From assembly GCA_026390345.1 (NCBI GenBank), contig JAPLGD010000089.1, positions 28,088-92,087 on the forward strand: 64,000 bases of DNA. Reading direction: 5' to 3'. The notes beneath the pieces were generated by a model. That model was not told the DNA's origin, did not search any database, and saw only the letters and a list, made by a program, of their open reading frames with translations. This DNA is from Candidatus Bipolaricaulota bacterium. Its GTDB lineage: Bacteria; Bipolaricaulota; Bipolaricaulia; UBA7950; UBA9294. A program made the position numbers and the translations under genes. Position 1 is the stretch's first letter. The number at the start of each line of letters is the position of its first letter. Below, piece after piece: positions 21,120 through 64,000 of the stretch.

Positions 21120-21123
21120 CACG

Positions 21124-22410: not shown

Positions 22411-23018
22411 GACTCGCTGTGCTCGTCCTCGTGACGCTCTCCGCCGGTCTCGCCGTGGCGGGGGCCGCGCTCGTCGCCCCCTGGACGTTCGCCCTCCCCG
22501 CGGGCCTCATCGCAGGACTATGGATCACCCTCGCCGCCTGGCGCCCCTCAAGCCGGCTCCACGTGATTCCGATGCTGCTCTGCGTCGGGACCTGTGCATT
22601 TCTGACCGTCGGCGTCGAGTCGCGCATTCTCGGCCTTGTCGGCCTTCCCCTCGCTCTCTTCGCCTGGGACGCGAGCTTCACGAGACGCACGATGTCGCGC
22701 TTCGCCAAAGTCGTGCAGCCCCACGTCGTCCTACGGTACGCGGCTGCCATGGCGGGGATCTGCGGAGCCGCCGTTGGCGTCGCCGTCGGCGGAAACATCC
22801 TTCAGTTGCGGCTCACCTTCCCGGTCGCGCTTGGCGCCTCCATCGGACTCCTCGGCCTCACCATCGCGGTCCTCTGGGCCGCGCGCCGATCGTCGGCCGT
22901 CGTCCCCGTCGTCCTGGAGAAGAAGGAAGGCGAAGAAGGAAAAGAGGAAGGGGACGCTGCCGCCGAGCGGGAGGCGTCCCCTTCCTACCAACCCCGAGGA
23001 TTCTCAAACCCTCACTAG
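22407..23018 (+). CDS. Hypothetical polytopic membrane protein with an acidic Glu/Lys-rich C-terminus
   Basis: GTG start overlapping the DUF58 stop (GTGA). Six hydrophobic helices. Confidence 0.45.
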   Translation: MRLAVLVLVTLSAGLAVAGAALVAPWTFALPAGLIAGLWITLAAWRPSSRLHVIPMLLCVGTCAFLTVGVESRILGLVGLPLALFAWDASFTRRTMSRFAKVVQPHVVLRYAAAMAGICGAAVGVAVGGNILQLRLTFPVALGASIGLLGLTIAVLWAARRSSAVVPVVLEKKEGEEGKEEGDAAAEREASPSYQPRGFSNPH

Positions 23019-23716
23019 GGCAAGCCTAACACGCCGCAGATGGTGGCTCGGAACCTGACGCCCGCGATGTAGCCTGCGAGCTCTCCCGCCAGTCGACTCT
23101 GCGACACAGCGTACCCCGCATACAACGACAGGCGGTACGTGAACACCAACTCCGTTCCTGCTTCCACGGCCGTCCACTGGGCAAACACGGTCCGCGTTGG
23201 GGCGTCGATACCAGAGAGAAAGGTCCCGCCTGGGTCTTCGATGGCCGCTTGCCATCCCTGGGGAATCTGTTCTTCGAAGCCGAATCCGCCTGGAATCGGT
23301 TCGACCGCACGGACAGTCACGACCACGAGGAGCGTGCCGTCGTCTTGCGCCACGACATCCCGCACGGCGAACGCGGGAACCGCTCCCACCACAACGCCCT
23401 TGCGGCAGGTCTCACGGCGCCCGGTGTCGTCCGCGATGGTGAGCTGCACTTCGTAGTAACCCGCGGCAGCGTAGGAGTACGTCGCCATGGGGTCGCGCGT
23501 CTCGACGTCCGCGACGTCGTCCCCGTTCCAGTCCCAGCGGTACGTGTACGTCCCCCCGGTCAGACAGGGCTCGCACACAGCGAAGCTGACGGCCTCCCCC
23601 ACCCCGGGGTTGTACGTAGACGGCGTGAAGTCGGCCTTCCACGCAGCCGCCGCCATCCACGGAACCGCGACGGCGATCGCCGTCGCGACAATCCATACGC
23701 GTCGTATGTTCCTCAT
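23015..23716 (-). CDS. Secreted protein with one PKD-like domain and one E-x-IP-x-GW module
   Basis: Signal peptide; YRWDWNGDD...YSYAAAGYYEVQLT (PKD-like); EEQIPQGWQAAIEDPGG...LVFTYRLSL. It is the last gene of the minus-strand operon at 23.0-29.0 kb. Confidence 0.55.
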   Translation of the reverse strand: MRNIRRVWIVATAIAVAVPWMAAAAWKADFTPSTYNPGVGEAVSFAVCEPCLTGGTYTYRWDWNGDDVADVETRDPMATYSYAAAGYYEVQLTIADDTGRRETCRKGVVVGAVPAFAVRDVVAQDDGTLLVVVTVRAVEPIPGGFGFEEQIPQGWQAAIEDPGGTFLSGIDAPTRTVFAQWTAVEAGTELVFTYRLSLYAGYAVSQSRLAGELAGYIAGVRFRATICGVLGLP

Positions 23717-23761
23717 GGCCCCCTCCCTCTTCATCACGCCCGGCGGCGACGGCCCGCTCCC

Positions 23762-25957: not shown

Positions 25958-25995
25958 GACACATCATCTCCCTCGACGGAGTCCCCGGCGCGCGG

Positions 25996-28209
25996 CTAGC
26001 CGTCGCACACCGAGGCATCCGGATCGCACGGGCCGTCGGGGATCACGGGGAGCGGATCGCAGATGTTCGTCCCCGTGAGCCAGTAGGCGATGATCTCCTT
26101 CAGCATGTGGTACCCAACCGTCTCGCCGCACGTCCACGGCACGACCTCGTCCTCCAACCAGAAGGCAATGGCCCGCTGGACTTGCTGGAACGAGATCCTG
26201 TCGGACAGCGTAATGTCCAGACGATCGTGGTCCACATCCCAGCGGGAAATCGCCACGAGGACGGACAAGCAGTCGCTGATGTCGACACCGCTGTCTCCGG
26301 TCACCGGCGTCTCCATGCACGGCAGAGCCGAGTCCACCACGCCGTAGAGATCGTTGCTGCTCGCGTAGCACGGATCGCTCGCGGCCATCTCGATCATCTC
26401 GGTCTGCGGAACCTCGACCTGGTAGATGATGGTCTTCGTCACCCCGGCCGGCAGCTTCGTAGGCCACACCCACTCGTTGCGGGAGCGCTTGTAGGTGAGT
26501 CCGTCATTCTCGATCGGAATGACCTTCCACCCCGTCGGCAGCTCTTCCTTGAGTCCAACGCCGTAGAGGTCCTGGTCAGCCCAGATCTCGACCTTCACGG
26601 TGAAGGTGCTCCCCGCCTTGTCGCCGCCCGGCCCGTAGTAGTTGAGCAGGACGTTGTTGCACGGCACCGGGGTCGCGATCGTGCGGACGGCCGAGATGCG
26701 GGCCGGCGGCACGAGCGGCAGAGGCAGGTCGACCGGCGTGCACGTATACGCGTACGCCGACAGCTCCTTCATCTGCTCGAGGCTGATCGTCGAACCCTGC
26801 GTCCACGGCACGACCTCGTCGTTCTGCCACATCTCGAGCGCCCTCTTCAGCTGCTGAGGGTCGATCTTCTGCGACAGCCGGAGGTCGATCGTGTCCTCCG
26901 TGTCCAGACCGACACGAGGAACCAGGTGAGCGATCGCTTCCTTCAGAGGCAGGGCCGTGGAGACCTCGATCTTCGCGTCTCCTTCAACCGGCAGCTCCAT
27001 GAACGGCGTCATCGCCTGGAACGTCCCCGTGAGCGTAAAGCACACCGGGAGCGTCGTCGCGATCAGCTGATCGCTCGGCGGCACCGAGAGCTCGTAGGAG
27101 ATGATCTTCGTCGAGCCCGCTCGGATCTGGTCGACGAACACCCACTGGACCGACGCGCGCTTGAACGCAGCACCGGCGTTCTCGAGCGGTTTGATCTTCC
27201 AGCCCACCGGGAGGTTCTCCTGCAGGCCGACGCCGGCCACATCCATCTGCGGCTCCATCCGCACGACAACCAGGAATGTGCTCCCGGGGAGGGCGGCCGA
27301 GGTGGAGATCGTCCGGGTGACCTTCACCGCAAGATCTCCGATCGACACGGAGAGCGTCGATCGCGCCGTCGCACCCTCATTGTCCGTCGCGCGGACCGTT
27401 ACGCTCTTCGCGCCGCTCGTCGCGTACGTGTAACTGACCGTAGGCTCCGTGGTCGTCGAGTCGAACAGGCCGTCGCCGTTGAAATCCCACTCGTACTTGG
27501 CGATCTGGCCGTCCGGGTCGAACGACGAAGACGCATCGAACGTCACCGGCTGGTTGATGCGCAGATTCGACGGAGAGACCGTGAACCCCACTTGTGGAGG
27601 CTCGTTCGGCGTGCCCGCCACGATGATCGGGTCGAGCAGGTTCAGTGTGACCTCGGTCGGACTCGCCAGCTGCCCGGACAAGAACACAACCCGGGTGATG
27701 CCGGCCGAGAACTGCGGGAACAGACTCAGCGAGAACTCGGTGCCGAGCGGTCCCAGCACCATGCCGTCTCCCTTTCCCGCATTCCAGGTCCACGAGACGC
27801 TGCCCGTTGGTGGCGTGAGCTGCCACTTGTCCATCAGGTCGTTGTCGTCCTTCACGAGGAAGTTGGCCCCCGTCGGGACGCCGGACAGCGTCATCGTCGT
27901 CGAACCGGCCGTGCCGCCCGTGGCACCCAGGATGACGAACAGCGAAAGCCCCCCCCCTGCGGAGTCCTTGTACAGGAACATGACCGCGGTGTTGGGCTTC
28001 TCCAGCCCCGTTGCGGCCTGCTGGTTCGTGTACTTGTAGAACGCGACCGCGTCGGCCGCGTTGGCCAGCGGCTCGATCTGAACTTGCGTTTCCCCTTGAC
28101 TGACAGTGTAGAAGCCGTCTCCCTGTGCCAAGCCCGTCGTCGGAAGTAGGAGAACGACCACCGCCAGAAGGAGGAAAAGGCCAAGAATACTGACCTTTCG
28201 CACCTTCAT
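25996..28209 (-). CDS. Secreted multidomain protein: PKD-like domain, two E-x-LP-x-GW modules, and two copies of the novel C-terminal-type domain, the last ending IAYWLTGTNICDPLPVIPDGPCDPDASVCDG
   Basis: Start at Met60 of the listed ORF (MKVRKVSILGLFLLLAVVVLL signal peptide; perfect AAAGGAGGT Shine-Dalgarno). YEWDFNGDGLFD PKD motif. Two internal modules, each with the LP-x-GW core. The second domain copy is nearly identical in pattern to the C-terminus of the 23762..25957 protein. Confidence 0.7.
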   Translation of the reverse strand: MKVRKVSILGLFLLLAVVVLLLPTTGLAQGDGFYTVSQGETQVQIEPLANAADAVAFYKYTNQQAATGLEKPNTAVMFLYKDSAGGGLSLFVILGATGGTAGSTTMTLSGVPTGANFLVKDDNDLMDKWQLTPPTGSVSWTWNAGKGDGMVLGPLGTEFSLSLFPQFSAGITRVVFLSGQLASPTEVTLNLLDPIIVAGTPNEPPQVGFTVSPSNLRINQPVTFDASSSFDPDGQIAKYEWDFNGDGLFDSTTTEPTVSYTYATSGAKSVTVRATDNEGATARSTLSVSIGDLAVKVTRTISTSAALPGSTFLVVVRMEPQMDVAGVGLQENLPVGWKIKPLENAGAAFKRASVQWVFVDQIRAGSTKIISYELSVPPSDQLIATTLPVCFTLTGTFQAMTPFMELPVEGDAKIEVSTALPLKEAIAHLVPRVGLDTEDTIDLRLSQKIDPQQLKRALEMWQNDEVVPWTQGSTISLEQMKELSAYAYTCTPVDLPLPLVPPARISAVRTIATPVPCNNVLLNYYGPGGDKAGSTFTVKVEIWADQDLYGVGLKEELPTGWKVIPIENDGLTYKRSRNEWVWPTKLPAGVTKTIIYQVEVPQTEMIEMAASDPCYASSNDLYGVVDSALPCMETPVTGDSGVDISDCLSVLVAISRWDVDHDRLDITLSDRISFQQVQRAIAFWLEDEVVPWTCGETVGYHMLKEIIAYWLTGTNICDPLPVIPDGPCDPDASVCDG

Positions 28210-28348
28210 TGCTACCTCCTTTGTCGGCGTTTTCATCTTCCCTTCGTGTTCAAAGCAGGAATGCAACATCACTCTAGCAGATTCCCCCCCCAGTAGTCTG
28301 TAACACCGATTACGCTGCAATCTGCCTCCTTCCCTGTCTCCATCGTCA

Positions 28349-28975
28349 TTACAGTGCCACAGCGATCTGGTAGAGGGCTGCATCAATCGCTTCCTTTGCG
28401 GCTTCCACAGGGTCGGCGGTGAGGAGCGAGAACAGCGGACGATCCTCGCACGTCACCGATGTGGTGAACTCGACGTCGCCTCTCGGGCTGAAAACCGACG
28501 CGAACATCCCGACCGTGGCCACCTTGTCGATGCCAAACAGAAGACCCAGCGGTGAGATGAGGATCTGCAATGTGGTATCGAGGAACGCCGTCGCTCCCAG
28601 AAGGACGAGGGAGCGTTCGGGGCGGTATGAGATCCGACTCTCCCACTCGACGATTCGAAGGATAATCACGTGGTCCGCGTTCAGCGCCTCGGCGAGGCGC
28701 TGCATGCCTTCGACCGTCATGCTGTTGCCGACGTACGACCCCGTCAGGCGTTGGGCGAGCATCAAATCCCCTTGGGTGTTGACGTCGCACCCGGCCACGA
28801 CCGAGCAGCGCTGACTGGCGTAGTTCTTGAGGATCTCCAAGTCCGCGGTCGGCACGGCCGCCGCAGCCTGCAAGAACACGGCAACCTTCGGCCGAGCGGA
28901 GCATCCCAGAGCGACCGTCGCGACGATCACGACGGCGACGACCCACCTTGCGGTACGGCGCGTTCGATCGGACAT
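28349..28975 (-). CDS. Hypothetical lipoprotein (lipobox LGC)
   Basis: VVAVVIVATVALG|CSA signal/lipobox; ~185-aa mature protein of unknown family. It is the first gene of the minus-strand operon. Confidence 0.5.
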   Translation of the reverse strand: MSDRTRRTARWVVAVVIVATVALGCSARPKVAVFLQAAAAVPTADLEILKNYASQRCSVVAGCDVNTQGDLMLAQRLTGSYVGNSMTVEGMQRLAEALNADHVIILRIVEWESRISYRPERSLVLLGATAFLDTTLQILISPLGLLFGIDKVATVGMFASVFSPRGDVEFTTSVTCEDRPLFSLLTADPVEAAKEAIDAALYQIAVAL

Positions 28976-48492: not shown

Positions 48493-50388
48493 CTACGGCA
48501 CCACGAGCGTAGATCCGGCCGCAATCCGAAGGCCTTCGATCGACCCGACCGGAAGTTCGAGCGCGAACTGGAACGGAGCGCTCGGCGCGTAGAGATCGCC
48601 GGAATTCGCCGCCATCCGCGCGGCGCCCACGAACGTCCCGTCGGCCGCGAAGAACGCGATCTCGAGGTCAAACAGCACCGTCGACATGGTGAATCGACGC
48701 TCGGCCTCGGTGTCGAACGGGAAGAGAATCCCCGAGAACGCCTCGACGTAGGCCCCCGGGAACCCTCGGAAACCCGTCCAATGCCCGACGTCGTCGGCCG
48801 CGACGCGAACAGAGATGTCCACGCTGGAGCCGTCCGCGCGCACGATCGTCACGACGTCGGAGCCCATCGCCCCGGCAACCCCGAACCCGGCCGCGGCCGC
48901 GTCCACCGAGGCAAGCGGAGCCGTATCCTGCGCCGTCGAGGGGTAGACGGTCACCGCGGATTCGCCGATGCCGTTTCCGTCCGCGTCAATGACCGGAGTC
49001 CCCTGCCAGAAGTTGCCGACTCCGTCGATCGTCCAGACGTTCCCCGTGCCGTAGTCGAGGACGCTCGCGGCGGTCACGCCGAGGAACACGTTTCGCGCAA
49101 AGCGGTTCGCCTTGGAGTCGAGGTTCACATAGACGTGGTTCCCGTTGTCCGTGAAGACGTTGTTCACAACGTCGTTCCCGGCCGCCGTGGACCGACCGTA
49201 CGCCTCGGGGAAGAGGAGCCCGCGCGACTGCTGCGCGATCAGGTTGCCTTCGATTCGGTTCTCGCTTCCGGAGAGCGCAATCCCGTACCCTCCAGACACG
49301 ATCGTGTTCGCGACGATCTCGTTCCCGGTTGCCTGAGCGGACAGGGAGATGCCGATCTCGCAATCGGACAACCCGTTTCCGACCACGCGGTTGGCCGACG
49401 CAAGCTCCAGCGTAATCCCTTGCTTCGTGTTCTTGTGGTAGAGGATGTTGCCGGAAAGCTCGTTCTCGTCCGAACCACCCGAGACGATGATCCCATTAGC
49501 GTTCGCAAAGACGACGTTGCCGGACACGTGGTTCCCATCCGCCGCGATGAGGCGAATCCCTGTGTCGTTCGCCAAGCACTGGTTGTCGAGGACCTGGTTG
49601 TCCGACGAGGTTGTCATCTGGATGCCGGCGAGCCGGTTGTTGCGCAGCGAGTTCCCTTGCAGCGTGTTTCGATCGGACTGGAAGAGGAAAATCCCGTGCT
49701 CGGTGAGGACGGGAGTCGTTCGGTACACCGCGTTCCCGGAAACGACCGAGTCCGTCACGAACGCAAGCTGGATCCCGTCACTGTTCATGAGGTCGTTCCC
49801 CGAGATGACGACGTTCCGGCTGTCGGCTACCGTCAGGTGCGCCGGAGCCTCTCCCTCGATCGTCACGCCGTCGGCGCCGTAGACGTAGAGGATCGGGCGG
49901 TTGTTCACCGTGTTGCTTCGGTCGATGTCGTGGTGGTACTCGGCGGCCTCCTCTCCGATGACGCGCAAGCCGACCCCATTCACGTACAAGACGCAGCTCG
50001 TCACGGTGATCTCGCGAGACGAGATGATCTCGATCCCGTTCATCGAGTTCGAGATCGCGCACTGCTCGATTCGACCGCCCGAGGAGAACGCGATTCGGAT
50101 CGCCGCGCCGTCCGCCGCTACCGCGCTCTGGATGATCAAACCCCGAAGGACGAAATGGGCCGTGACGTTCTCGATCTTCACCGCGTACTTCGCGCCATCG
50201 GCGGAGATTTCCCATCCCGTGATGACGTACGGATCGGCCTCCGTACCGCTTCCGGAAACGACCCCGTTCTCCGCGGTAAACTCCGCCTCTCCGAGGATCG
50301 CAATCGCGCCTCGGGATCCCCCAAGCGCGGCCACGGACACCGCAAGGGCCGCCCCCACGATCAAGAGAAAGACAAGCAACCGCTTCAT
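48493..50388 (-). CDS. Secreted parallel beta-helix (NosD-like) repeat protein fused to a C-terminal DUF192 (COG1430) domain
   Basis: Signal peptide (MKRLLVFLLIVGAALAVSVAAL) and about 20 beta-helix rungs (SGN/NxI repeats). The last ~120 aa carry the DUF192 pattern (DISVRVAADDVGHWTGFRGF...ILFPFD...RFTMSTVLFDLEIAFFAADGTFV). Confidence 0.65.
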   Translation of the reverse strand: MKRLLVFLLIVGAALAVSVAALGGSRGAIAILGEAEFTAENGVVSGSGTEADPYVITGWEISADGAKYAVKIENVTAHFVLRGLIIQSAVAADGAAIRIAFSSGGRIEQCAISNSMNGIEIISSREITVTSCVLYVNGVGLRVIGEEAAEYHHDIDRSNTVNNRPILYVYGADGVTIEGEAPAHLTVADSRNVVISGNDLMNSDGIQLAFVTDSVVSGNAVYRTTPVLTEHGIFLFQSDRNTLQGNSLRNNRLAGIQMTTSSDNQVLDNQCLANDTGIRLIAADGNHVSGNVVFANANGIIVSGGSDENELSGNILYHKNTKQGITLELASANRVVGNGLSDCEIGISLSAQATGNEIVANTIVSGGYGIALSGSENRIEGNLIAQQSRGLLFPEAYGRSTAAGNDVVNNVFTDNGNHVYVNLDSKANRFARNVFLGVTAASVLDYGTGNVWTIDGVGNFWQGTPVIDADGNGIGESAVTVYPSTAQDTAPLASVDAAAAGFGVAGAMGSDVVTIVRADGSSVDISVRVAADDVGHWTGFRGFPGAYVEAFSGILFPFDTEAERRFTMSTVLFDLEIAFFAADGTFVGAARMAANSGDLYAPSAPFQFALELPVGSIEGLRIAAGSTLVVP

Positions 50389-50649
50389 GATCTCAAGCTC
50401 CTTTTCGTTCTCTGTCCCCACCCGGATTCCAAGGGATTCTGCTCCGCATTATAGCGATGCCCCGAGACCCCAACAATCGAGATCCGAGCGGATAACCTAG
50501 ACCGAGTCTACATCATCGCGTTGTCGGGGTCGTGAGCGGGGCGTGGCAATCTTGTGAAGGATGCTCGCGAGGGCGCGACGTGCCCGACGTCCTCTCCGGC
50601 GTGAACCGGCGCGACCCCCCTCCACTGGCCCACCGCGTAGAGTCGACCC

Positions 50650-53320: not shown

Positions 53321-53380
53321 AACGAGGGGCACGGCGTGCCCCTCTCGAATCTGCTCCGATAACCCTTCGCGCTCTCTACG

Positions 53381-54355
53381 TCACGGGAGGAATCTCCGCA
53401 GCGACCGTCCGAACGCGCCGATGTCGAGCGCCGAGAAGTCAAGCGTCAGCGACACGCGGTGTGACCCTCCGAGCGTGTTCCCCACGTACGCGTAGTCGAC
53501 GAGGAATCCCTCTACGTTCACCCCCAGGCCGGTCGTGAACGACGTCCCCGACCCGCTCATCACGCCGAGGCGGAGCGCCAGCGTCGGCACTGGCGAGTAC
53601 GAAACGCCGGCCCGGAACGCGCCTCCCAAGTACAGGTCGGTGGCCACGGTGACCTGGCCCATGAGGCGTGCCGAGGCGCCGATCCGCAGGTCCATCGCAA
53701 GGTCGTCCGAGATATCGTCGTACGACATTGCGCCGAACAGGTTGACGGCCGTGACGCCGATCGCGACGTCCGACAGCGAGACCGGGCCGAATCCGGCCAC
53801 CGGAAGCCCCATTCTGAACCCAAGGTCGAGGGTGAACCCCGAACCGCTGACGTCGCCGATCTTCGCGGTGATCGCTTTCAGCTGTACGCCGAACGCCATC
53901 GCCATCGGCAGATCGGGAATGAACGGCAGGTCGTTGGGGTCGATTCCGAACGCGAAGAGGTACGCCGAGCTCGAGTACCCGAGGAGCCCCGTCGGCTGCC
54001 CCTCGTCGTCGTACCCCTGAATGCTCCCGGAGTTCAGCAGTAGGGCGCCAATTCCGAAGTTCCGGAACGTAAGCGCAAGCGCCGAGTAGTTCGCCTCGCC
54101 CAGGTACGAAGAGAAGAACGAAGTGAAGCTGATCCCCGGCAGCGAGGCCAGACCCGCCGGGTTGTAGTAAAGCGTCTCCGCGCTGCTGACGAGCGAGATC
54201 CCGGCTCCGCCCGCACCAACTACACCCACTCCAGGAGCGATGTCAAGCACAGTTGTGGCCGTCTGTGCCATCGCCCCAAGACCCAGCCCCAGGCTGAGGA
54301 GGGCCACCCACGACATCCACTTCTCGAATCTTCTCACGGCTGTCCCCTCCCTCAT
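53381..54355 (-). CDS. Outer-membrane beta-barrel protein, PorP/SprF- or PorV/PorQ-like (T9SS-associated); family assignment uncertain
   Basis: Signal peptide, a YYNPAGLA motif near the N-terminus, and alternating amphipathic beta-strand pattern throughout. Its start overlaps (ATGA) the stop of the upstream T9SS cargo gene, as in sprB-sprF-type pairs. Confidence 0.5.
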   Translation of the reverse strand: MREGTAVRRFEKWMSWVALLSLGLGLGAMAQTATTVLDIAPGVGVVGAGGAGISLVSSAETLYYNPAGLASLPGISFTSFFSSYLGEANYSALALTFRNFGIGALLLNSGSIQGYDDEGQPTGLLGYSSSAYLFAFGIDPNDLPFIPDLPMAMAFGVQLKAITAKIGDVSGSGFTLDLGFRMGLPVAGFGPVSLSDVAIGVTAVNLFGAMSYDDISDDLAMDLRIGASARLMGQVTVATDLYLGGAFRAGVSYSPVPTLALRLGVMSGSGTSFTTGLGVNVEGFLVDYAYVGNTLGGSHRVSLTLDFSALDIGAFGRSLRRFLP

Positions 54356-57300
54356 CGTCGCGCCACCAGTAGTCTGAATGTCTCTGATCGACGCGTCTGC
54401 CCGTCGACCGTCGCTGTAACGAGCACGAAGTACATCCCATTCGCGACATCCTCACCATCGTCCGATGTGAGGTCCCACTCGTACGTTCCGTCGTGTGCCG
54501 ACATGTCCACTTCGACAATGAGCTTCCCGGCCAGGTTGTAGATCCGAAGCACGACGTCCTCCGCACCATCGGGCAGCTGGCAGACAATCTGTGCCTGTGA
54601 CGCTGCCGGGTTGGGATAGGCATACAGCGTGAGCACGTCACCACCGACCGGAACGTACCTTGTGATCGTGCCCGTGTCTCCGCCTGCAGTCCCCACGATC
54701 AGCGTGACTTCGTATCCTGCCCCCGTACTGGAGTCTTCATACGTGTGCGTGGGGTTCTGTGCCGTGCTCGTACCTCCGTCACCGAACGTCCAGCTCCACG
54801 TCGCGATGCTCCCAATCGGGGTGGAGGTGTCGGTGAACGTGACCACCTCGTTCTTGTCCGGGCCGGTCGGCGTGTACGTGAACGACGCCACAACCACCAC
54901 TGGGTTCTTCGTGACGGAGAGTGGGTGCGACACGTCGTCCGTATTTCCTTTGTTGTCCGTAACCGTGAGGGTGACCGTGTATGTCCGCGAGCTACACGCC
55001 TCATCAGCGCAGGTGTACGTGTGTGAAGGAGTCTGAATCGCGCTCGTCGTACTATCGCCGAAGTCCCAGAGCCAGGTGACGATCTCTCCATCGGAGTCTA
55101 CGGACTCATCGGTGAAGACGAGCGCAGCTCCGTAATGGGGGGCGCTTGGCACCTGGAACGCGGCAATCGGGGGCGAGTTGACTGCGACAGTTAGGATCTT
55201 CGTCGTGTAGTCCGTGACACCGTCGTCATCCGTCACAATCAGCGTAACGGGCAGGCTGCCTCCTCGGGAGAAGACGTGGTTTACGGACTGCCCTGTTGCG
55301 TCCGTCTCGCCGTCATCATCGAAGTCCCATTCGTAGAACTCCACCTCTCCGTCGCGGTCCGTCGAGCTGCTGCCGTCGAATGTGACGATCTCGTCCACCT
55401 CCGGCTGGCTCGGCGTATACGTGAAGTTCGCTTGGGGCCGCACGAACTCCACGGAGACGACGCGCGTCTTGTACCCGTACGCCGCCTCGTTGTCCGTGAC
55501 TCGGAGCGTGACGATCTTCGCTCCCCCCGCATGGTAGATGAACGAGGCGGTGCTCCCAGTGGCATCGTAGATCCCGTCGCGGTCGAAATCCCACTCGTAG
55601 GCAACGATGGATCCATCAGCGTCGCTTGACCCGTCCGCCTTGAAGGTGAGCACTTCGTTCAGGTTTGCCTCATCACCTTCCGCAGGCGTGATTGTGAAAT
55701 CGGCAACCGGAGCCTGGTTGTCCCCGCTTGTCCCACCCGCGCTGACGGGGATCCCTTTGGTCTCCGCGCCGACCTGCTGGTCGTTGTCGGTCACCGTCAG
55801 CATCACCGGGTACACACCCACGGAGGCGAAGGAGTGCGTGACGGACATGCCCGTCGCGTCGGTCGCGCCATCTCCGTTGAAGTCCCACTCGTACAGAATG
55901 ATCGTTCCGTCAGCATCGGCGGACGTGCTCGCACTGAACGAGATCACTTGACCCGTCACCGGTGCCGTCGGGGTATACGTGAATGCTGCGGTCGGCGGAG
56001 TTCCCTGCACGGGGACGACCCTGGTGACACTGTCCTCCGAGGCCGCGTTGTCGGTAACGGTCAGCATCACCGTCTTCGCGCCGACGGACGAAAACGCGCG
56101 CGTCACCGTCGTTCCAGTGGCATCCGTGATACCATCCTCGTCGAAGTCCCACTCGTAGAGCACGACGCTGCCGTCCGTGTCGCCAGATCCGGCGGCAGAG
56201 AACGTGACCATCTGGCTTACTTTGGGATTCGCCGGGCTGAACGTGAAGCTGGCATGAGGAGGCGCGTTGAGGACGGTGACCGACCGCGCCGCTGACGAGG
56301 TGGCTCCTCCACGCGTCGTCACTGTGAGCTGAACTCGGTACGTACCGGCACTCGCGAACGTGTGCACGGGGTTCTGAGAGCTGCTACCTCCCGAATCGCC
56401 GAAGTTCCAGCTCCACGAGGTGATATCGCTTGAGCCACCCGTGGACTGGTCGAAGAACTGCACGGAGTCCTGCGTCGACGGGTTCGCCGGGGAATACGTG
56501 AATGAGGCAGATGGTCCGACAACCGCGACCACGGTCGTCGCTGTGTCGGTCTTCTCGCAGTTGTCTTCGACTGTCAGCGTGACTGTGTAGCTTCCGCCGT
56601 TGGTGTACTGGTGAGTAGGATGGCGCTGGGTGCTGGTTCCGCCATCGCCGAACGTCCAACTCCACGTAAGGATGGTGCCCCCGTCCGGGTCAGTCGACGT
56701 ATCCTGGAACTGGATCGAGTTGTTGACCGTCGGGCTCGTCGGCGAGTACGTGAATGACGCGGATGGCTCCACGCACTGCACCGACACGAACTTGGTGATC
56801 TGATCGGTTTCTCCGCCGCTGTCCGTCACGGTCAACGTAACCGGGTGCTGTCCGGAAGTCGTGAAAGTGAACCGAGGCGTGCTTCCCGTAGCCGTCCCCC
56901 CGGTCCCCGGTGCGTTGTCGAAGGTCCATGCGTACTGCACGATCGTCCCGTCTGAATCCGTCGAACAGGCGCCGTCGAACTGCACGATATCCCCAGCGTT
57001 TGGGTAGGTTGGCGAGTAGGTGAAGCAGGCCACCGGAGGGTTGTTCGTCACGGCGACATTCTGTGTCACATACTGGTAGCCGCCACGATCGTCCTTGGCT
57101 CGCAGCGTTACAGGCTTGGTGCCGGCAGAGGAGAACGAGTGCGTGACGACGCGCCCGTTCGCGTCGTACGTGCCATCCTGGTTGAAGTCCCACTCGTACA
57201 GCACGAACCAGGAGGCGTCGCCTTCGGTGACGGTGGCCGTGAACGTCACCTGGACGCCAATTGCGGGGGAAGCCGGAACGAACGTGAAACTGACGGTCGC

Positions 57301-57378
57301 CTGGGACCACGCCAGATGGCCTACCCCCCACGCGAGGCCCATCGTCAAGAGCGCGGTAATCAAGCTTCTTCTCACCAT
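54352..57378 (-). CDS. Secreted protein with about 10 tandem PKD domains and a type IX secretion C-terminal sorting domain
   Basis: Signal peptide. Repeated ~90-aa units with YEWDF[ND]xDG / WxWxFGDG motifs. C-terminal LTLYAYPNPAASQAQIV...VLRIYNLAGKLIVEV...GMYFVLVTAT resembles the T9SS CTD (Por_Secre_tail). Confidence 0.8.
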   Translation of the reverse strand: MVRRSLITALLTMGLAWGVGHLAWSQATVSFTFVPASPAIGVQVTFTATVTEGDASWFVLYEWDFNQDGTYDANGRVVTHSFSSAGTKPVTLRAKDDRGGYQYVTQNVAVTNNPPVACFTYSPTYPNAGDIVQFDGACSTDSDGTIVQYAWTFDNAPGTGGTATGSTPRFTFTTSGQHPVTLTVTDSGGETDQITKFVSVQCVEPSASFTYSPTSPTVNNSIQFQDTSTDPDGGTILTWSWTFGDGGTSTQRHPTHQYTNGGSYTVTLTVEDNCEKTDTATTVVAVVGPSASFTYSPANPSTQDSVQFFDQSTGGSSDITSWSWNFGDSGGSSSQNPVHTFASAGTYRVQLTVTTRGGATSSAARSVTVLNAPPHASFTFSPANPKVSQMVTFSAAGSGDTDGSVVLYEWDFDEDGITDATGTTVTRAFSSVGAKTVMLTVTDNAASEDSVTRVVPVQGTPPTAAFTYTPTAPVTGQVISFSASTSADADGTIILYEWDFNGDGATDATGMSVTHSFASVGVYPVMLTVTDNDQQVGAETKGIPVSAGGTSGDNQAPVADFTITPAEGDEANLNEVLTFKADGSSDADGSIVAYEWDFDRDGIYDATGSTASFIYHAGGAKIVTLRVTDNEAAYGYKTRVVSVEFVRPQANFTYTPSQPEVDEIVTFDGSSSTDRDGEVEFYEWDFDDDGETDATGQSVNHVFSRGGSLPVTLIVTDDDGVTDYTTKILTVAVNSPPIAAFQVPSAPHYGAALVFTDESVDSDGEIVTWLWDFGDSTTSAIQTPSHTYTCADEACSSRTYTVTLTVTDNKGNTDDVSHPLSVTKNPVVVVASFTYTPTGPDKNEVVTFTDTSTPIGSIATWSWTFGDGGTSTAQNPTHTYEDSSTGAGYEVTLIVGTAGGDTGTITRYVPVGGDVLTLYAYPNPAASQAQIVCQLPDGAEDVVLRIYNLAGKLIVEVDMSAHDGTYEWDLTSDDGEDVANGMYFVLVTATVDGQTRRSETFRLLVARR

Positions 57379-57634
57379 TGCGTTGCCTCCTCCGCATCAC
57401 GCTGGATCGGTAGAGTATCTCTCGATGCGATCATAGCAGGAGCGACAGTCGCGCCGTTGATGTGAGTCACTGCGCCCGGGCGAATCGGTCCTTCGCGGAA
57501 GGGAAGTCCGTCCCCTCTGAAGGCGTCACGCACCTTACCTGAAAGGCATTGGCGGACCTCGTTCGGGCCCGCCAACCCTGGCCGCACCTGACAAGCGCTG
57601 CGCACCAGCCCACAGGCGCGCAGGCCGCCGCTCG

Positions 57635-58603
57635 CTAGAAAGAGAACTGCATCGACACGAAGTGGGTCGCCCCGAGCTCGCTGTTGGGAACATACGCGTA
57701 GTCGAGCCACAGCTGTCCAAACAACTCGAGGCCGACTCCGCCGGAGATTGTGCCATTCCCTGTGAAGTCGGAACTCCACCCTGCGCGCACGAAGATCCAC
57801 CGAACCGGGGTCACCTCGACTCCAACGTGAACCTTCTGCTCACTTGCAGGTCGGCCGACCGCCCAGTCGACATCGCAGGCCGCCAGCACAAGGTCCTCCC
57901 CGAAGATCGCAGACGCACCGATCTTATTGACCCACGGAACGTAGTTCACCGGCTCACCCGCGGTCCCGTACCACTGGATCCTGGTCTGACCGACGTCCAT
58001 CAGATTCGCGCCCACCGCCACGGGGATCTCCGCCACAGCGAACGTTCCAAGGAACCCCAGATCAAAGCCGAGCCCCCCGCTCCGCCCTTCGAGAATCGAG
58101 TCGTGGTAGTACTTCACCGTACAGCCCACCGACAGGTAGTCGCGCAACGTCACGCCGGCCGAGGCACAGAAGATCGAGCTGGTCGCGCTGAACGTCTCGT
58201 AGCTCCCGGGATTCTCCTCGTCCCAGACAATGATGTCGTCAACAACGGCGCCGATCCAGCCGATCGACAGGCCGAGCGCGCGTACGGATTCCGTCTGCAA
58301 TCGCAGATCGATTCTCGCGCTGAGCGAGACGTCCTGAAAGGTGATTCCAAAGTCGGCCCCGTACGGCTGCGAGTACATCGCCGACGCACTGAGGTCTGGA
58401 GCCCTCACCAGAGACGCCGGGTTGTAGTATGCGATCGGCTTGCCGAGCGTCACAGCCACAAAGGCTCCCCCCATCGCGAGCGGGCGCGCGTCGATCCCAA
58501 TCCGGGAGAACGCCGAAGCCCCTACGCCAGGGGGAACCCCGCTCGCCATCGCGAGCATGCATCCAGCCACCAGGAACACTGCCACCGGGACCAGCGTCTT
58601 CAT
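57635..58603 (-). CDS. Outer-membrane beta-barrel protein, second PorP/SprF- or PorV-like paralog
   Basis: Signal peptide (MKTLVPVAVFLVAGCMLAMA), an AYYNPASL motif, a beta-strand pattern and a C-terminal aromatic residue (SMQFSF). Confidence 0.5.
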   Translation of the reverse strand: MKTLVPVAVFLVAGCMLAMASGVPPGVGASAFSRIGIDARPLAMGGAFVAVTLGKPIAYYNPASLVRAPDLSASAMYSQPYGADFGITFQDVSLSARIDLRLQTESVRALGLSIGWIGAVVDDIIVWDEENPGSYETFSATSSIFCASAGVTLRDYLSVGCTVKYYHDSILEGRSGGLGFDLGFLGTFAVAEIPVAVGANLMDVGQTRIQWYGTAGEPVNYVPWVNKIGASAIFGEDLVLAACDVDWAVGRPASEQKVHVGVEVTPVRWIFVRAGWSSDFTGNGTISGGVGLELFGQLWLDYAYVPNSELGATHFVSMQFSF

Positions 58604-59232
58604 TCACCGACTCCTTTTCCCGAACTCCAACTCAGCTCTATTGAAACCGAGACCCCGGAGAAGTCGACGAACGGCGTCCCGCGTCCTCGATACGTCTGTC
58701 CCGAAGCGTCGGTCATCTCCCACACCGGTAACCATTCCAGACCCGCCGCAACGCCAAGCGACAGTCTCTTCCCCAGCGGGACTCGGTAGCCTGCTCGTCC
58801 TGCCACACCCAATCCCCACCCGCCGAGACCCGCATACCGGGCCTCGGCGAAGTCGAACGTGCCTCTGTACACGCCAAGGTCGGTCTGGAAGCGCCAAGAT
58901 CCGAGGCGGTACTCGCACCACGCGTAGCCTCCCACCAGGGACGCTGCTGCATCCGTCTCCCGCTCTGAGACGCGGGCTCCGAGGACTCTCCCCCCCACGC
59001 CACCGCGCAGCCGATCGGAGAAAGATGCAATCGGCATGCGAAAGTCGCCCCCGATCCCCAGCCCAAGATCGGGAATCGTCGCGCCCGCCTCCTCTTCGTA
59101 CGCGGCGAGGAGGCCATTTGCATACGCGAAGGGGGCGTAGAACGCCGAGAGCCCTCCTTCCATCTCGAAGGCAACCACCGGAATCCCAACCGCCATCATC
59201 AGGCAGAGGGCGATACCCCATTGCCGAACCAT
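58600..59232 (-). CDS. Small (~210 aa) putative outer-membrane beta-barrel protein
   Basis: Signal peptide and a Gly/aromatic-rich alternating pattern. ATGA overlap with the downstream barrel gene; located 64 nt downstream of the giant cargo gene. Confidence 0.4.
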   Translation of the reverse strand: MVRQWGIALCLMMAVGIPVVAFEMEGGLSAFYAPFAYANGLLAAYEEEAGATIPDLGLGIGGDFRMPIASFSDRLRGGVGGRVLGARVSERETDAAASLVGGYAWCEYRLGSWRFQTDLGVYRGTFDFAEARYAGLGGWGLGVAGRAGYRVPLGKRLSLGVAAGLEWLPVWEMTDASGQTYRGRGTPFVDFSGVSVSIELSWSSGKGVGE

Positions 59233-59316
59233 CTCGATCCCCTTCCACGTCACCTAGTGAAAAGGGCCCTGGAGTTCTCTCCCCAGGGCCCCGTAGCTTC
59301 GCTTCGAACCGAGGAT

Positions 59317-62300
59317 CTAGCGAAGGATGACCAGCTTCTGCACCTTCGTCTGGATCCACTCTCCATTGATCAGGACGTACGCTCGGTAGAGGTAAATCCC
59401 GTTCGCTAGGAACTCACCGTAGCTGTTTTCGGTGTGCCATACCAGCTCGTTCCCCGCGATCTCCTCTTCGTACACGAGCGTCCCGCTCAGGTCGTAAATC
59501 ACGATCCGCATCGCCTCAACTTCAGTGTTGCGGACCATGAACGTTGTCGTGTGGACGTCCTTCACCGGGTTCGGGACGTTCATGACGTCCAGACTGCCGG
59601 CGACGTCACGCGACGCCGACTTCTCCTCGGACTTCGTCGGCAGCGTCGCAGCGCCACTTGCAGACGCGCTGCGAACCTTCAGATTGTCGACGAGCCATCC
59701 GACATAGTCGTTGTACCACTTGTCGACCGAGTCGAAGAGGAACCGGATCGTCATTGTCTCGGCACCGCCTGTCAGGTAGGTGCCCGCGCTGACGTCGCGC
59801 TCCCACTCCTCGGTCGACGCCGTGCCCGAATCGGCCGTCCAGATGGTTCTCCAGTCGCCGTCGTCGAGCCTGACTTGAATCTGAGTCTTGTCGTATCCGC
59901 CGTTCGTGAAGTTCTCGACAGCGCGCCAGTAGTCGAAGACGACCTTGAACGCCTCGACTCCCGATCCGACGGTAAGGTCGATCACGGGGCTGACGAGCGT
60001 CAGCGTCCCCGTCGTCCTCGCGTCGGTGTTGTAGTCCGGCGTAGTCGTGTTGTCGTGCTGGCCGTAGTACGCGGCGTGGTTGCCGGCCCCGAGGTCATCG
60101 ACGCCGGTGACGCCGGTGTCAGCCGTGAAGTGCCACAGACCACCGAGGCCCCACGACGGGTCGTTCTCGAAGTCCTCGAACAGCAGGCTCACTTCTTGAC
60201 CGACCACGATGGTGCACGTCCTCGTTGCGACTTCATTCCAGGCTTCGTCGCGGACGCGGAGCGTGAAGGTGAAGCTACCCGAAGCCCGCGGTGTCCCTTG
60301 GATGTAGGCCGTTCTGCGGTCGGTTGAGTCGACGGTGAGACCGAGCCCCGAGGGCAACGTGCCGGAAGCAATTTCCCAGATCGGGACAATGCTGTCCGAC
60401 CCGCCCGCCGCCGTGAGCTCCTCGTCATAGTACTCGCCGACGGAGGCCTCCGCCTTCGGGCAGTTCGAAATCCCGAGCTCGGCGCTGCCGGCGTATAGCG
60501 TGACCTCATCGATCAGCCAGCCGTAGGCCTCGCCCGCCTTCGCGTTGCCCGAGCCGTCGATCGAGTCGAAGCAGAACCGCAGCTGGATCTTCACACCTTC
60601 CTTCAGCAGGATTCCAGTGTGCGCTTCCTGCCACGTCCATGCTGCTTCCGACTTGTTCGTCGACGACTTCGACCAGATCGTTCGCCACGCTCCACCTTCG
60701 AAGCGCATGTCGACCCAAGTCTTGTCGTACTCGCCGCCGGTGAAGTACTCGACATTCCTCCACGACTTGAACCCGACGATCAGCTCTTCTCCGTCGTACG
60801 CCTCCTTGATCGCGTACCAAGCCGAGAGGAGGCAGCCCTTCGCCCGGCCAACCGCGAAGTTCGGGTCCTCCGGATCCGACGTCGTACCGTCGTCGTACTG
60901 CCCGAAGTACGCCACGTGTCCGTACTCGCACTCCGCGTCTCCAGTCAACGCGTACTTAACGTGCCCGGTTTCGTGCCACAGGTTCTCCGGGTCGCTCGGC
61001 ACGGACGGAATCGGGTCACCCTCGACCGTCCACGTCGCGCTGTTCTGCCACGTGTCCCAGTTCGCGCAGCACGGAGGCTGTGCGCTCGCCGTTGGGCAGT
61101 CGTCGAAGTCCTGCGAGTAGTCGATCTCGTTGGCCGACCCGCTACCCGAGGGCGTTCGGATGTTCAGGGTCAGCGTCTTCGTCTGCGGCCGGCCCTCAAT
61201 GCACGTGAGGACGAACGTAATCTCGTACGTCCCCGACGTCCCCGGATCCGGCTCGCCATAGAGCCGTCCGATGGAGTCGAGCGCCAATCGGCGCGGCAGC
61301 GACGACCGCTCGCCGTCCTTGACGACCGACTTGATCGCCCATGACCGCGCACCCGTTGCAGCACCATCGATGACCTGTGGGCACAGATCGACGTCGTACT
61401 TCTCCCCGATCGTCGCCTGCGGCAAGTAGTCGGTGCAGATCAAACACCCGGTCGGGTCCGGCGAGTGGGTCTTCACGATGTTGTCGATCAACCAGCCGAA
61501 CGAGTCGTTGGACGCTCCGTCGACTGAGTTGAAGCCGAACCGAATCCGCATGCGCGTCGCGTGCGGCGGGACGATGACCCTGTACTCGTCGTCGGTGTAG
61601 GCTTCCTCGTCCGCGTCAAGGTAGTGGGTGATCGTCGCTTCGGCCCAGTCCCCCTCGTTCGCGTCGCTCGAGTCCTTGTACCAAACCGTCTTCCAGTCGC
61701 CGCCATTGCAGTCCTCGACGTCGCCGGGGTTCGACACCGTGAACGGGTCGTAGTCGAGGTCCGACCAGTCGTCGAACAAGACCTGGACGTAGGTCCAGTC
61801 GTAGGCGCCCATGTACTGCTCGACCTCACGGAAGTACTCGAACGAGATGCTCACGTACTGGTCGCCCGGGTTGATCTCGTTCCACGGCGAGCACACAACG
61901 CCAACCGAGGCCTCGCCCATGTCGTAGTCCCCGGTTTCTTTGTTGCCGAAGTAGAGGGCGTAGTCGGGAGACGGGAACTCATCTGCACCCGTAGGCACCC
62001 CGACACCCACGAAGTCGGACTCACTAACGAGGTTCCACAGGTTCTGATCGTCGATCTGCAGACAGTGGTCGCACAAGCACCACCTGTCCCACTCTCGTGC
62101 CGGCTCGCCCGAGCCGGGCGCCTGCGTCCAATCGTCGAATCCGCCCGCATTCTCCCAGCTGAGTCCGTCCTCAAGTTCCTTCTCATACCAGGAAGGCTCG
62201 ATGCGGTAGACACCGCCGTGCGCGATGATACCCTCGGTCCAGTTGAGCTTGACGTCGTCAACAACGGTCTTCCCGATGTGGATGTCCTGCGGGCTCGCCA

Positions 62301-62949
62301 CGTTCGAACACCCAACCTGCTCGCCCACGACACCCATGAGAACGAGGACTTCCACGACGCTGTAGGCGCCGTAGGCGGTCTGCAACTCGGCGAACGTGCC
62401 AGTATCAGCAACAGTGATGGTCGACGGGTCGACCGTGTCGCTGTCGGCCATTTCGACCGATCCCCACCACCAGTCAGCCGCGCCCGCATCAAACGGCGCA
62501 CAAGTGTGATCCGCGAGCGTCCCCGGGTTCGGCGCCGCCTCGCTGACCGCGAGGTAGTAGTTCCCCCCGCTGAACAGCAGGAACGCGAGGCTCGGGCCGC
62601 TGTCGGACTGAACTGTGCCCAGCATCACGTACTCGAACCCCAACCCGGGACCGGCCACGACGTCCTCGAGAAGGAACCGCTTCGCGCAGTCGAGGGCCAT
62701 GTATGCCCAATTGCCTTCGAAGTACGTCGCAAGTTCCATGCCCCAGTGGTCGGCGACAGCGCAGTAGTCACCGGGTGCTGTTGGGTTGTCCAGACAAACC
62801 TCGTCGTGCTTCTCACGGTACCACCACTGTGCTTCTCCGCCGTCCGCGTGGCGCGTGATCTCTGCCATCGCCACGGTCGAGAGGATCACCACGGCGGCAA
62901 GCGAGAGAACCGCCACAAGGCTTGCTCTCCTTCTACTTCTGCTGCCCAT
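59317..62949 (-). CDS. Giant (1210 aa) secreted protein with a T9SS C-terminal sorting domain, two Ig-like (He_PIG/cadherin-like) domains and three copies of a ~170-aa MAM-like or choice-of-anchor-type domain
   Basis: Perfect AAGGAGG Shine-Dalgarno; signal peptide. Repeated module ...LW[HN]...A[LY]YFG...L.SP...L.F.[YW]R.VE...G.YDKT.V..R...G.W.TIW......EW.......L..G.....RF.FDSVD......GWL[IV]DN. C-terminal VYDLSGTLVYEEE...GIYLYRAYVLINGE resembles a T9SS CTD. Confidence 0.75.
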   Translation of the reverse strand: MGSRSRRRASLVAVLSLAAVVILSTVAMAEITRHADGGEAQWWYREKHDEVCLDNPTAPGDYCAVADHWGMELATYFEGNWAYMALDCAKRFLLEDVVAGPGLGFEYVMLGTVQSDSGPSLAFLLFSGGNYYLAVSEAAPNPGTLADHTCAPFDAGAADWWWGSVEMADSDTVDPSTITVADTGTFAELQTAYGAYSVVEVLVLMGVVGEQVGCSNVASPQDIHIGKTVVDDVKLNWTEGIIAHGGVYRIEPSWYEKELEDGLSWENAGGFDDWTQAPGSGEPAREWDRWCLCDHCLQIDDQNLWNLVSESDFVGVGVPTGADEFPSPDYALYFGNKETGDYDMGEASVGVVCSPWNEINPGDQYVSISFEYFREVEQYMGAYDWTYVQVLFDDWSDLDYDPFTVSNPGDVEDCNGGDWKTVWYKDSSDANEGDWAEATITHYLDADEEAYTDDEYRVIVPPHATRMRIRFGFNSVDGASNDSFGWLIDNIVKTHSPDPTGCLICTDYLPQATIGEKYDVDLCPQVIDGAATGARSWAIKSVVKDGERSSLPRRLALDSIGRLYGEPDPGTSGTYEITFVLTCIEGRPQTKTLTLNIRTPSGSGSANEIDYSQDFDDCPTASAQPPCCANWDTWQNSATWTVEGDPIPSVPSDPENLWHETGHVKYALTGDAECEYGHVAYFGQYDDGTTSDPEDPNFAVGRAKGCLLSAWYAIKEAYDGEELIVGFKSWRNVEYFTGGEYDKTWVDMRFEGGAWRTIWSKSSTNKSEAAWTWQEAHTGILLKEGVKIQLRFCFDSIDGSGNAKAGEAYGWLIDEVTLYAGSAELGISNCPKAEASVGEYYDEELTAAGGSDSIVPIWEIASGTLPSGLGLTVDSTDRRTAYIQGTPRASGSFTFTLRVRDEAWNEVATRTCTIVVGQEVSLLFEDFENDPSWGLGGLWHFTADTGVTGVDDLGAGNHAAYYGQHDNTTTPDYNTDARTTGTLTLVSPVIDLTVGSGVEAFKVVFDYWRAVENFTNGGYDKTQIQVRLDDGDWRTIWTADSGTASTEEWERDVSAGTYLTGGAETMTIRFLFDSVDKWYNDYVGWLVDNLKVRSASASGAATLPTKSEEKSASRDVAGSLDVMNVPNPVKDVHTTTFMVRNTEVEAMRIVIYDLSGTLVYEEEIAGNELVWHTENSYGEFLANGIYLYRAYVLINGEWIQTKVQKLVILR

Positions 62950-63372: not shown

Positions 63373-64000
63373 CTACTCCAACGAGATGAAAACCGTCGCA
63401 AACGTCACCACGAGCCGGTCTCCGTACTGCCGCCGCCACTCTGAGAAGCCCCCGAGGAGGACGCTCACGTTGAGATACCCGGCGCGAAGCATCGCGTCTG
63501 CAATGTAGGAAGCCTCCTCCCCCGTTTCGTCGTACAGGATCACAGGAATCCCGGTCGGAATATGCGGGAGCCATGAATCGATCTCTCCAGGCTGAAGATT
63601 CACAGCGCCCACAAGGTGCCCCTGCTCGTAGTTCGCCAGAGGGCGAACGTCGATTACGAGCGCTAGGCTGCGCCCGACCTCTTCGCCCTTGACGAAGTAC
63701 GCCTGGGCGTTGACAACAGTGCCAACAAGAGACACCACGACCTCCCCGTTCTCCGGATCGTTCGTGGTGATGTGCACGGCCTTCGACACCCTCGATCCGC
63801 CGTACCCTTCCGTAGAGAGGGTTACTCCAAGTCGCACCGACTTCCCAGGGTCGACTGTCGAGGTCGACAGGTTCGTCGCCGTGCAGCCGCAACTGGCTCG
63901 CACGTCGCTGATCACGAGCGGCGCATCCCCCTGGTTCTCGATCAGGAATGCGTGTTCGACCTTGTCCCCTTCAATGGCCACGCCGAAGTCGTACTCGGGC
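63373..64000 (-). CDS. DUF1573 (ASCGCT motif) domain fused to a rhodanese-like domain; the N-terminus is probably beyond the window end
   Basis: ENQGDAPLVISDVRASCGCTA is typical of DUF1573. The C-terminal part looks like a single-domain rhodanese fold (LVIDVRPLANYEQGHLVGAVNL...PVILYDETGEEAS...AGYLNVSVLLGGFSEW), but no active-site Cys is seen in the usual loop position, so the domain may be inactive. No signal peptide appears after the in-window Met, so the true start is likely upstream. Confidence 0.55.
   Translation of the reverse strand, partial: PEYDFGVAIEGDKVEHAFLIENQGDAPLVISDVRASCGCTATNLSTSTVDPGKSVRLGVTLSTEGYGGSRVSKAVHITTNDPENGEVVVSLVGTVVNAQAYFVKGEEVGRSLALVIDVRPLANYEQGHLVGAVNLQPGEIDSWLPHIPTGIPVILYDETGEEASYIADAMLRAGYLNVSVLLGGFSEWRRQYGDRLVVTFATVFISLE

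Follow-up and report, generated by a model that had tools for sequence, protein, structure and literature searches.

Why would a bacterium of the phylum Bipolaricaulota carry, side by side, large exported proteins ending in domains of the kind used by type IX secretion systems (T9SS) and outer-membrane barrels resembling the T9SS proteins PorV and PorQ? The question is raised by five genes, here named A to E, on the minus strand at positions 53381-62949 of a 64 kb stretch of DNA (contig JAPLGD010000089.1), which as a whole will be called the window. According to the open reading frame (ORF) calls for the window, the five genes fill that range exactly. Reviews hold that T9SS genes, and proteins with the corresponding C-terminal domain (CTD), are absent outside the Fibrobacterota-Chlorobiota-Bacteroidota (FCB) superphylum (PMC11285876), and in a search of the literature no paper was found that connects the T9SS with Bipolaricaulota, Acetothermia or Thermotogota. 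The five genes appear to form a conserved envelope locus of two tandem modules, one comprising A, B and C and the other D and E, in each of which a large CTD cargo, predicted to be exported by the Sec pathway, would be paired with an outer-membrane barrel that has 14 strands and belongs to the PorV/PorQ family. The likeliest reading, held here with moderate confidence, is CTD-directed surface display in which the PorV-like barrels act as carriers or anchors; by analogy with known systems, a cargo/carrier relationship seems the most sensible reading of the cluster.

The two cargos are the products of genes A and D. Gene A (59317..62949, minus strand) encodes 1210 amino acids as given in public records, and its longest ORF extends to 63027. 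The product is identical to NCBI MCX6094880.1, which PGAP named “T9SS type A sorting domain-containing protein”. It begins with what reads as a signal peptide (MGSRSRRRASLVAVLSLAAVVILSTVAMA), carries He_PIG immunoglobulin (Ig) domains (He_PIG 40.2 bits), and contains three modules that close with GWL[IV]D[NE], the motif being found at residues 485, 810 and 1084. The CTD of A (59320..59592, minus strand) comprises about the last 91 residues (VPNPVKDVHTTTF...WHT...LANGIYLY...QKLVILR) and is the best-conserved part of the protein, with 77% identity to orthologs versus 58% for the remainder. Gene D (54352..57378, minus strand) encodes 1008 amino acids, identical to NCBI MCX6094877.1 (“PKD domain-containing protein”), with ten PKD stretches (PKD_4, 454 bits), the number that had been read from the sequence in the initial annotation of this region. 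The CTD of D (54355..54618, minus strand) spans residues ~921-1008 (YPNPA...LRIYNLAGKLI...ANGMYFVLVTA...FRLLVARR). The initial annotation had also described both large proteins as having T9SS CTD-like ends, and this is borne out. The CTD of D lies above the curated cut-offs of PF18962 (29.9 against 27), TIGR04183 (32.1 against 23) and FlgD_ig (31.7 against 27), and that of A falls just short of those of TIGR04183 (22.1 against 23), CHU_C (22.1 against 27) and PF18962 (16.6 against 27), while bearing the type A name given by NCBI. Each CTD runs to the last residue of its protein, and in both cases the PorZ and PorU models, through their C-terminal ends, give a better match than most other models. 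The window holds no CTD genes beyond A and D.

On the same strand, as the initial annotation had stated, each cargo is followed by a β-barrel gene with PorV-like model matches: gene C (57635..58603, minus strand; 322 amino acids, labelled hypothetical by NCBI) and gene E (53381..54355, minus strand; 324 amino acids). With NF033709, the PorV/PorQ family of NCBIfam, protein C scores 78.0 bits (E-value 1e-21) and protein E 69.2 bits (E-value 5e-19), matches that are significant, though under the curated cut-off of 90 bits. The best equivalog-level match is PorQ for E (PorQ model, 46.9 bits), and PorV2 and PorV for C. A profile of the C family searched against the PDB gave PorV of Flavobacterium johnsoniae as its sole sequence match at E < 0.1 (E-value 9e-5), in an alignment that passes through the N-terminal “DAR...G..NPA” segment. 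The YYNPA motif reported earlier in both barrels is indeed present (AYYNPA in C, LYYNPA in E); it lies in the N-terminal segment and is aligned with the WNPA of PorV. The two barrels had been called paralogous, and a comparison of C with E agrees: they are 26% identical (BLASTP), and hhalign, run family to family, gives 99.8% probability (E-value 5e-28). C and E thus appear to be distant paralogs in the PorV/PorQ family.

Models of the two barrels (AlphaFold, AF2) have a pLDDT of 93 for C and 89 for E. Both are 14-stranded FadL-type barrels, and the best structural match of both is F. johnsoniae PorV, which is the top Foldseek match of the E model with a TM-score of 0.67. The predicted fold is that of the FadL superfamily, and it is mainly the sequence profiles that place C and E in the PorV/PorQ branch, a placement with which the structure ranking agrees. 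Compared with PorV itself (F. johnsoniae 6H3I/8GL6 chain F, and PorV of Porphyromonas gingivalis), they share the 14-stranded FadL-type barrel and the N-terminal NPA segment, have PorV as their best profile and structural match, and follow a CTD gene as porV follows porU. They differ in being ~15-20% shorter, in having only 16% identity to PorV, in falling under the curated cut-off, in forming two or more divergent families of paralogs in each genome, every one beside its own cargo, in belonging to a host outside the FCB superphylum, and in having no known SprA partner.

Two features of individual barrels may be mentioned here. In the family of E the last β-strand is followed by a conserved helix of ~17 residues (LDIxALSRSLRRLLP), seen as helix 312-322 in the E model, the C-terminus of E corresponding to window positions 53381-53450; because of this helix, E-type barrels do not end in the usual terminal aromatic residue. 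In C, the signal peptide has a lipobox-like LVAGC; it is not kept in the orthologs, so C is probably not a lipoprotein.

The family to which C and E belong decides against one part of the initial annotation, namely that the locus mirrors the pairing of sprB with sprF, in which barrels of the PorP/SprF type are adaptors dedicated to CTD cargos of type B. Such cargos rely on neighbouring PorP/SprF shuttles (PMC12618676), and there is a likeness in layout: in the type B systems (SprB-SprF and the Fjoh pairs; PMC12618676, PMC9143113), as here, a cargo gene adjoins a gene for a dedicated outer-membrane barrel which follows it, there are several pairs per genome, and some “orphan” cargos share a common shuttle. 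The likeness does not extend to the barrels. When B, C and E were compared with the PorP_SprF models of Pfam (PF11751) and NCBIfam, none gave a match at E ≤ 0.1; C and E matched NF033709 instead, significantly, and their best structural match was PorV. Membership of C and E in PorP/SprF is contradicted at the level of the family, and a pairing of the sprB-sprF type is very unlikely. Because the barrels match PorV/PorQ, the closer analogy is with porU-porV or PorZ-PorQ. In those pairs, too, a CTD surface protein is partnered by a barrel of the PorV/PorQ family, and the best equivalog match of E is PorQ. A and D differ from PorU and PorZ in having neither a C25 peptidase domain nor a PorZ-type match beyond the CTD, and they resemble proteins of the adhesin or surface-layer type.

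The shared fold also bears on a quite different reading, according to which C and E would be channels of the FadL type for hydrophobic compounds, lying beside adhesin-like genes by chance, and the CTDs would have no part in sorting, being generic Ig domains of the FlgD-like kind. An NPA is likewise conserved in FadL (a FadL mutant, PDB entry 2r4o, is described as “delta NPA”), the CTDs match FlgD_ig as well, and a cultured strain of Bipolaricaulota has been reported to respire with alkanes. C and E share with FadL and TodX both the fold and an NPA-containing N-terminal segment. Yet neither gives a match to FadL-family models in Pfam or NCBIfam, and the sequence profiles select PorV/PorQ; furthermore, the context is that of CTD cargos, not of lipid metabolism, as would suit FadL, or of BAM genes, as would suit the FadL-type barrel BamG. 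The chance element of this reading is difficult to reconcile with what is found in other genomes (below), and the reading as a whole is improbable.

The neighbourhood of C and E homologs is an indication that barrels and cargos belong together. The whole five-gene cluster recurs with the same neighbours, at 40-60% identity, in several of the related loci that were collected (L003, L005/L006 and L015), and in GCA_028278555.1 the D-E pair alone stands at the same chromosomal site, as would be expected of separable modules. Elsewhere the cargo varies. In L011, a 1626-amino acid cargo with beta-helix/NosD domains and a CTD precedes a B-like gene and then a C-like gene, and a second pair at that locus consists of a 1022-amino acid CTD protein and a 301-amino acid PorV-family barrel; in L012, a Peptidase_S8 protein with an A-like CTD precedes a barrel. 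Every barrel that is at least 33% identical to C or E, and for which the upstream gene is visible, stands behind a CTD-bearing gene; these pairs cover at least five cargo architectures, with frequent overlap of start and stop codons. This argues against a chance association of FadL-type channels with adhesin-like genes. The class of CTD also tracks the class of barrel: A-type CTDs occur with C-type barrels and D-type CTDs with E-type barrels, and where the CTD is distinct the barrel is so too (Spearman rho 0.69 over 55 pairs, a figure that is confounded by orthology and inflated by shared ancestry). Further afield, on a contig of candidate division KSB1, a relative of C lies directly behind a PorU-like gene (C25 peptidase plus CTD), in the classic porU-porV arrangement.

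The five ORFs can be taken as real genes because the GC content at third codon positions in the frames of the cluster is 0.77-0.84, versus an overall GC content of ~0.65, because A to D are exact matches to NCBI/Logan protein records, and because all five are kept in synteny in other genomes at the identities given above. All five N-termini, judged by eye, look like Sec signal peptides. The genes are closely packed: A and B are 84 nucleotides apart, B and C overlap by four nucleotides at an ATGA (“gtgaATGAag”), and so do D and E (“cgacgATGAgg”), these being the 4-nucleotide start/stop overlaps that had been pointed out at the outset. The B/C and D/E pairs are predicted to be translationally coupled. 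Between C and D is a spacer of 256 nucleotides (57379..57634, minus strand), with a GGAGG ribosome-binding site 8 nucleotides before the start codon of D and, in a consensus scan, no terminator-like site. The same scan found a terminator-like hairpin just past E (53324..53344, minus strand; a 9-bp stem with seven G-C pairs and a T-rich tail), which is no more than suggestive because the region holds no more sites of this kind than expected from shuffling.

Between the first cargo and its barrel lies gene B (58600..59232, minus strand), which encodes a glycine-rich secreted protein of 210 amino acids. The initial annotation had a small outer-membrane protein following the giant cargo; the gene is in place, and the barrel nature of its product is indicated by sub-threshold matches alone (Autotransporter at 22.3 bits, OMP_b-brl and DUF3575). 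B gave no NCBIfam match and, by profile search, no PDB match, and a word-based homolog search returned B alone. Orthologs of B precede C-type barrels in four loci (L003, L005, L011 and L015). B is probably a small outer-membrane β-barrel, and it may have a role in display.

How might such modules work? A and D would be exposed on the outside of the toga-like outer membrane, and the neighbouring barrel would serve as carrier or anchor by binding the CTD non-covalently on the extracellular side, in the manner of PorV with type A CTDs and as proposed for PorV and PorQ in holding PorU and PorZ. Glew et al. reportedly showed in 2017 that PorU and PorZ are retained by way of PorV and PorQ. In the T9SS, the extracellular loops of PorV wrap type A CTDs (PMC10994853), and PorU, PorZ and PorA retain their CTDs after secretion (PMC11285876). 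Outside the T9SS, BamG, a FadL-type barrel of the BAM complex of Bacteroidota, holds the surface protein BamH by means of extended extracellular strands (PMC12611786).

Is the CTD a tag recognized by a private partner, or a signal in wider use? A profile of both window CTDs was searched against 1.84 billion representative proteins, which gave 24,618 matches at E ≤ 1e-3; at E ≤ 1e-10 there were 617 representatives. The best 60 matches with inspected C-termini have mostly the A variant (...PNPVRDVHTTTF...WHT...LANGVYLY...KLVILR). Among the best 150 matches, the CTD is at the exact C-terminus in nearly all, in proteins ranging in length from 97 to 1800 amino acids, as for a sorting tag and not as for the generic Ig domain that the FadL-channel reading supposes. 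The named proteins with an A-type CTD are from Bipolaricaulota. Cargo domains in the 63 CTD proteins that were scanned include He_PIG, beta-helix/NosD, cadherin-like, Big_9, dockerin, BACON, Peptidase_S8 and Peptidase_C10. The A-type CTD thus appears, from its distribution, to be a general sorting signal. In the same set, the CTD is matched at E ≤ 1e-3 by CHU_C in 55 of the 63 proteins and by TIGR04183 in 47/63, and Por_Secre_tail gives a match in 21/63. Since CHU_C is the type B model of Pfam, its frequency is a point for the sprB-sprF analogy; against this, TIGR04183 is the type A model, and for the 63 proteins the top families do not include the type B model of NCBIfam. The CTDs here score as type A in NCBIfam, in which they differ from the type B cargos, though the A variant resembles CHU_C too.

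Several observations weigh against the reading of the cluster as cargos each displayed by a neighbouring carrier. Firstly, the A variant of the CTD tags many different Bipolaricaulota proteins across the phylum, and in at least two loci (L014, which is from the same sample as the window, and L016) cargos with an A-type CTD have no adjoining barrel. Because the variant is so widespread and some of its bearers lack a neighbouring barrel, C may serve more than A, that is, it may be a shared carrier and not the private partner of A; a strict rule of one cargo to one barrel is weakened accordingly for A and C. Secondly, remote barrel homologs (26-29% identity) do not adjoin CTD genes. Thirdly, both barrels, C at 78 bits and E at 69, score under the curated NF033709 cut-off of 90 bits. 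Fourthly, no translocon, motor or sortase is encoded in the sequence that was read, i.e., the window and the related loci. The proposal in the initial annotation that the barrels may be cargo-specific adaptors is therefore plausible for D and E, and doubtful as a strict rule for A and C.

Other A-type CTD genes show different surroundings. At L016:650-8971 (plus strand) are three tandem genes (1169, 463 and 1090 amino acids), all with an A-type CTD and, upstream of the CTD, a region in common; the vicinity has no PorV-like barrel, and toxin-antitoxin genes come next. About 3 kb past the right end of the window, beyond SmpB, another ORF with an A-type CTD is found (L001:3-548, plus strand), so that the organism has at least three A-type CTD proteins: A, this ORF and P0232 on L014. 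Two small proteins encoded at L011:10358-11044 and L014:3615-4286 (both minus strand) are 44% identical, and both have a signal peptide and, at the C-terminus, “GLPWW” with a transmembrane segment; each adjoins an A-type CTD gene on the opposite strand, and proteins of this kind may be a recurring partner.

If the CTDs are sorting signals, what exports the proteins that bear them? One possibility is a complete T9SS of the ordinary kind in a phylum new to the system, with SprA/Sov, PorK/L/M/N and PorU encoded elsewhere in the genome, C and E as parts of the PorV/PorQ type, and A and D as cleaved substrates. It overlaps with carrier-assisted surface display and differs only in claiming the whole canonical machine. 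CTDs and PorV-family barrels co-occur with the full system in all studied cases (PMC11285876), the A variant of the CTD on hundreds of protein clusters argues for one common export machine, and the best equivalog-level matches (PorQ for E, PorV2 and PorV for C) are to parts of that machine. However, the window encodes no homolog of SprA/Sov, PorK/L/M/N (GldK-N) or PorU, and among the called genes of the Bipolaricaulota-type loci L001-L008, L011, L012 and L014-L016 (~180 kb, partly redundant) there is no T9SS core gene; since these sequences make up only a fraction of a genome, this is weak evidence against a full T9SS. Furthermore, Peptidase_C25 is not among the Pfam families listed for the 63 CTD proteins, the reviews cited above place T9SS genes within the FCB superphylum only, and the sole closed genome of Acetothermia has been reported to be without genes for lipopolysaccharide (LPS), the acceptor used by PorU and PorZ. 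A complete T9SS is a serious possibility, if one that falls short of an even chance. In a batch scan of the CTD proteins, NF033707 reached a best E-value of 1e-45, which would suggest a PorU-like sortase; the score is most likely due to tandem FlgD_ig repeats, and the candidate was rejected.

Perhaps, instead, the CTD cargos and PorV-like barrels, with small partners such as B, constitute a reduced CTD sorting system that operates without SprA, PorKLMN and PorU. This is a tentative proposal, somewhat less probable than the complete machine. If it is true, the pair of CTD and barrel would be a self-standing module for surface anchoring, possibly older than the T9SS or independently acquired, and cargo passage across the outer membrane would follow an undescribed route. 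The presence of the core machine would extend the range of the T9SS to a distant phylum; its absence would mean that the CTD-carrier pair works alone, which bears on the evolution of the T9SS and on how proteins are delivered to the cell surface where the outer membrane is toga-like. The parts come from families already known (T9SS-type CTDs, PorV/PorQ-related barrels) and do not make a categorically new system. What is new is the setting in a phylum outside the FCB superphylum, in which hundreds of protein clusters carry a T9SS-type CTD and PorV-like barrels of at least two families stand behind CTD cargos; what appears, by sequence, to be a distinct, compact, sub-threshold branch of PorV-like barrels; and the repeated placement of these barrels right behind individual CTD cargos. 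Candidate surface proteins and anchors can now be named for the Bipolaricaulota, a deep-branching phylum of which no isolate had been described before 2025. Its members are described as diderms of an atypical kind, which have an S-layer and a toga-like outer membrane.

All of this presupposes that the DNA has been assigned to the right organism. A, B, C and D are identical to proteins of one NCBI metagenome-assembled genome (MAG) labelled Candidatus Bipolaricaulota, and a search of GTDB species-representative genomes gave members of the C family in two Bipolaricaulota/Bipolaricaulia MAGs and in no others. The high GC content noted in the initial annotation (~0.65) thus goes with a Bipolaricaulota genome and not with a relative of the flavobacteria. 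The host appears to lie outside the FCB superphylum, which would place the cluster outside the described range of the T9SS. It might be objected that a contig from an FCB-superphylum organism was wrongly binned as Bipolaricaulota: all sources are MAGs or metagenome contigs, and among more than 230 homologs of E, the named ones being Bipolaricaulota, there is one exception, with 91% identity, which is labelled Thermotogota. The contigs, however, are 98-258 kb long and surround the cluster with genes of a housekeeping kind (IleRS, L13, pur genes, TGT, SmpB), the same synteny is found in several independent assemblies, the named homologs of barrels and cargos are Bipolaricaulota with that single exception, two GTDB species-representative genomes being included, and composition is uniform across the window, the remainder of which is otherwise of a housekeeping nature (rho, AspRS, IleRS, L13, a purine biosynthesis cluster, TGT, UPRTase). 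Such an artefact is exceedingly unlikely. The exceptional homolog, P0093 (“Thermotogota bacterium” in NCBI), probably reflects a label problem of one MAG.

Other genes of the window and of the related loci also concern the cell envelope or the vicinity of the cluster. At 6150-9362 (plus strand) a protein of 1070 amino acids matches LptF/LptG at residues 5-361 alone (LptG 185 bits, LptF 174 bits, both under cut-off), its ~700 further residues giving no match; it is an odd protein for a phylum whose one closed genome is reportedly without LPS genes. The region 20166-28386 encodes a MoxR AAA ATPase and a DUF58 protein, after which come three secreted PKD/VWA/DUF11 proteins, encoded on the minus strand; the two that are large have a C-terminal motif in common (..AYWLTG..DPLP). 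This motif is not a T9SS-type CTD, so that C-terminal modules of a second kind may be employed. Directly upstream of A, at 63373-63999 (minus strand), is a fusion of DUF1573 (OS_HP2 family) with rhodanese, which is kept upstream of A in L001, L002 and L005 and is absent in L007 and L015. NosD/beta-helix proteins are encoded at 14837-15658 (plus strand) and 48493-50421 (minus strand); the second is fused to DUF192 and holds its position near the cluster in L005, L007 and L016. On the other side of the cluster, an ABC transporter and a NosD-like gene are found in L005, L007 and L015.

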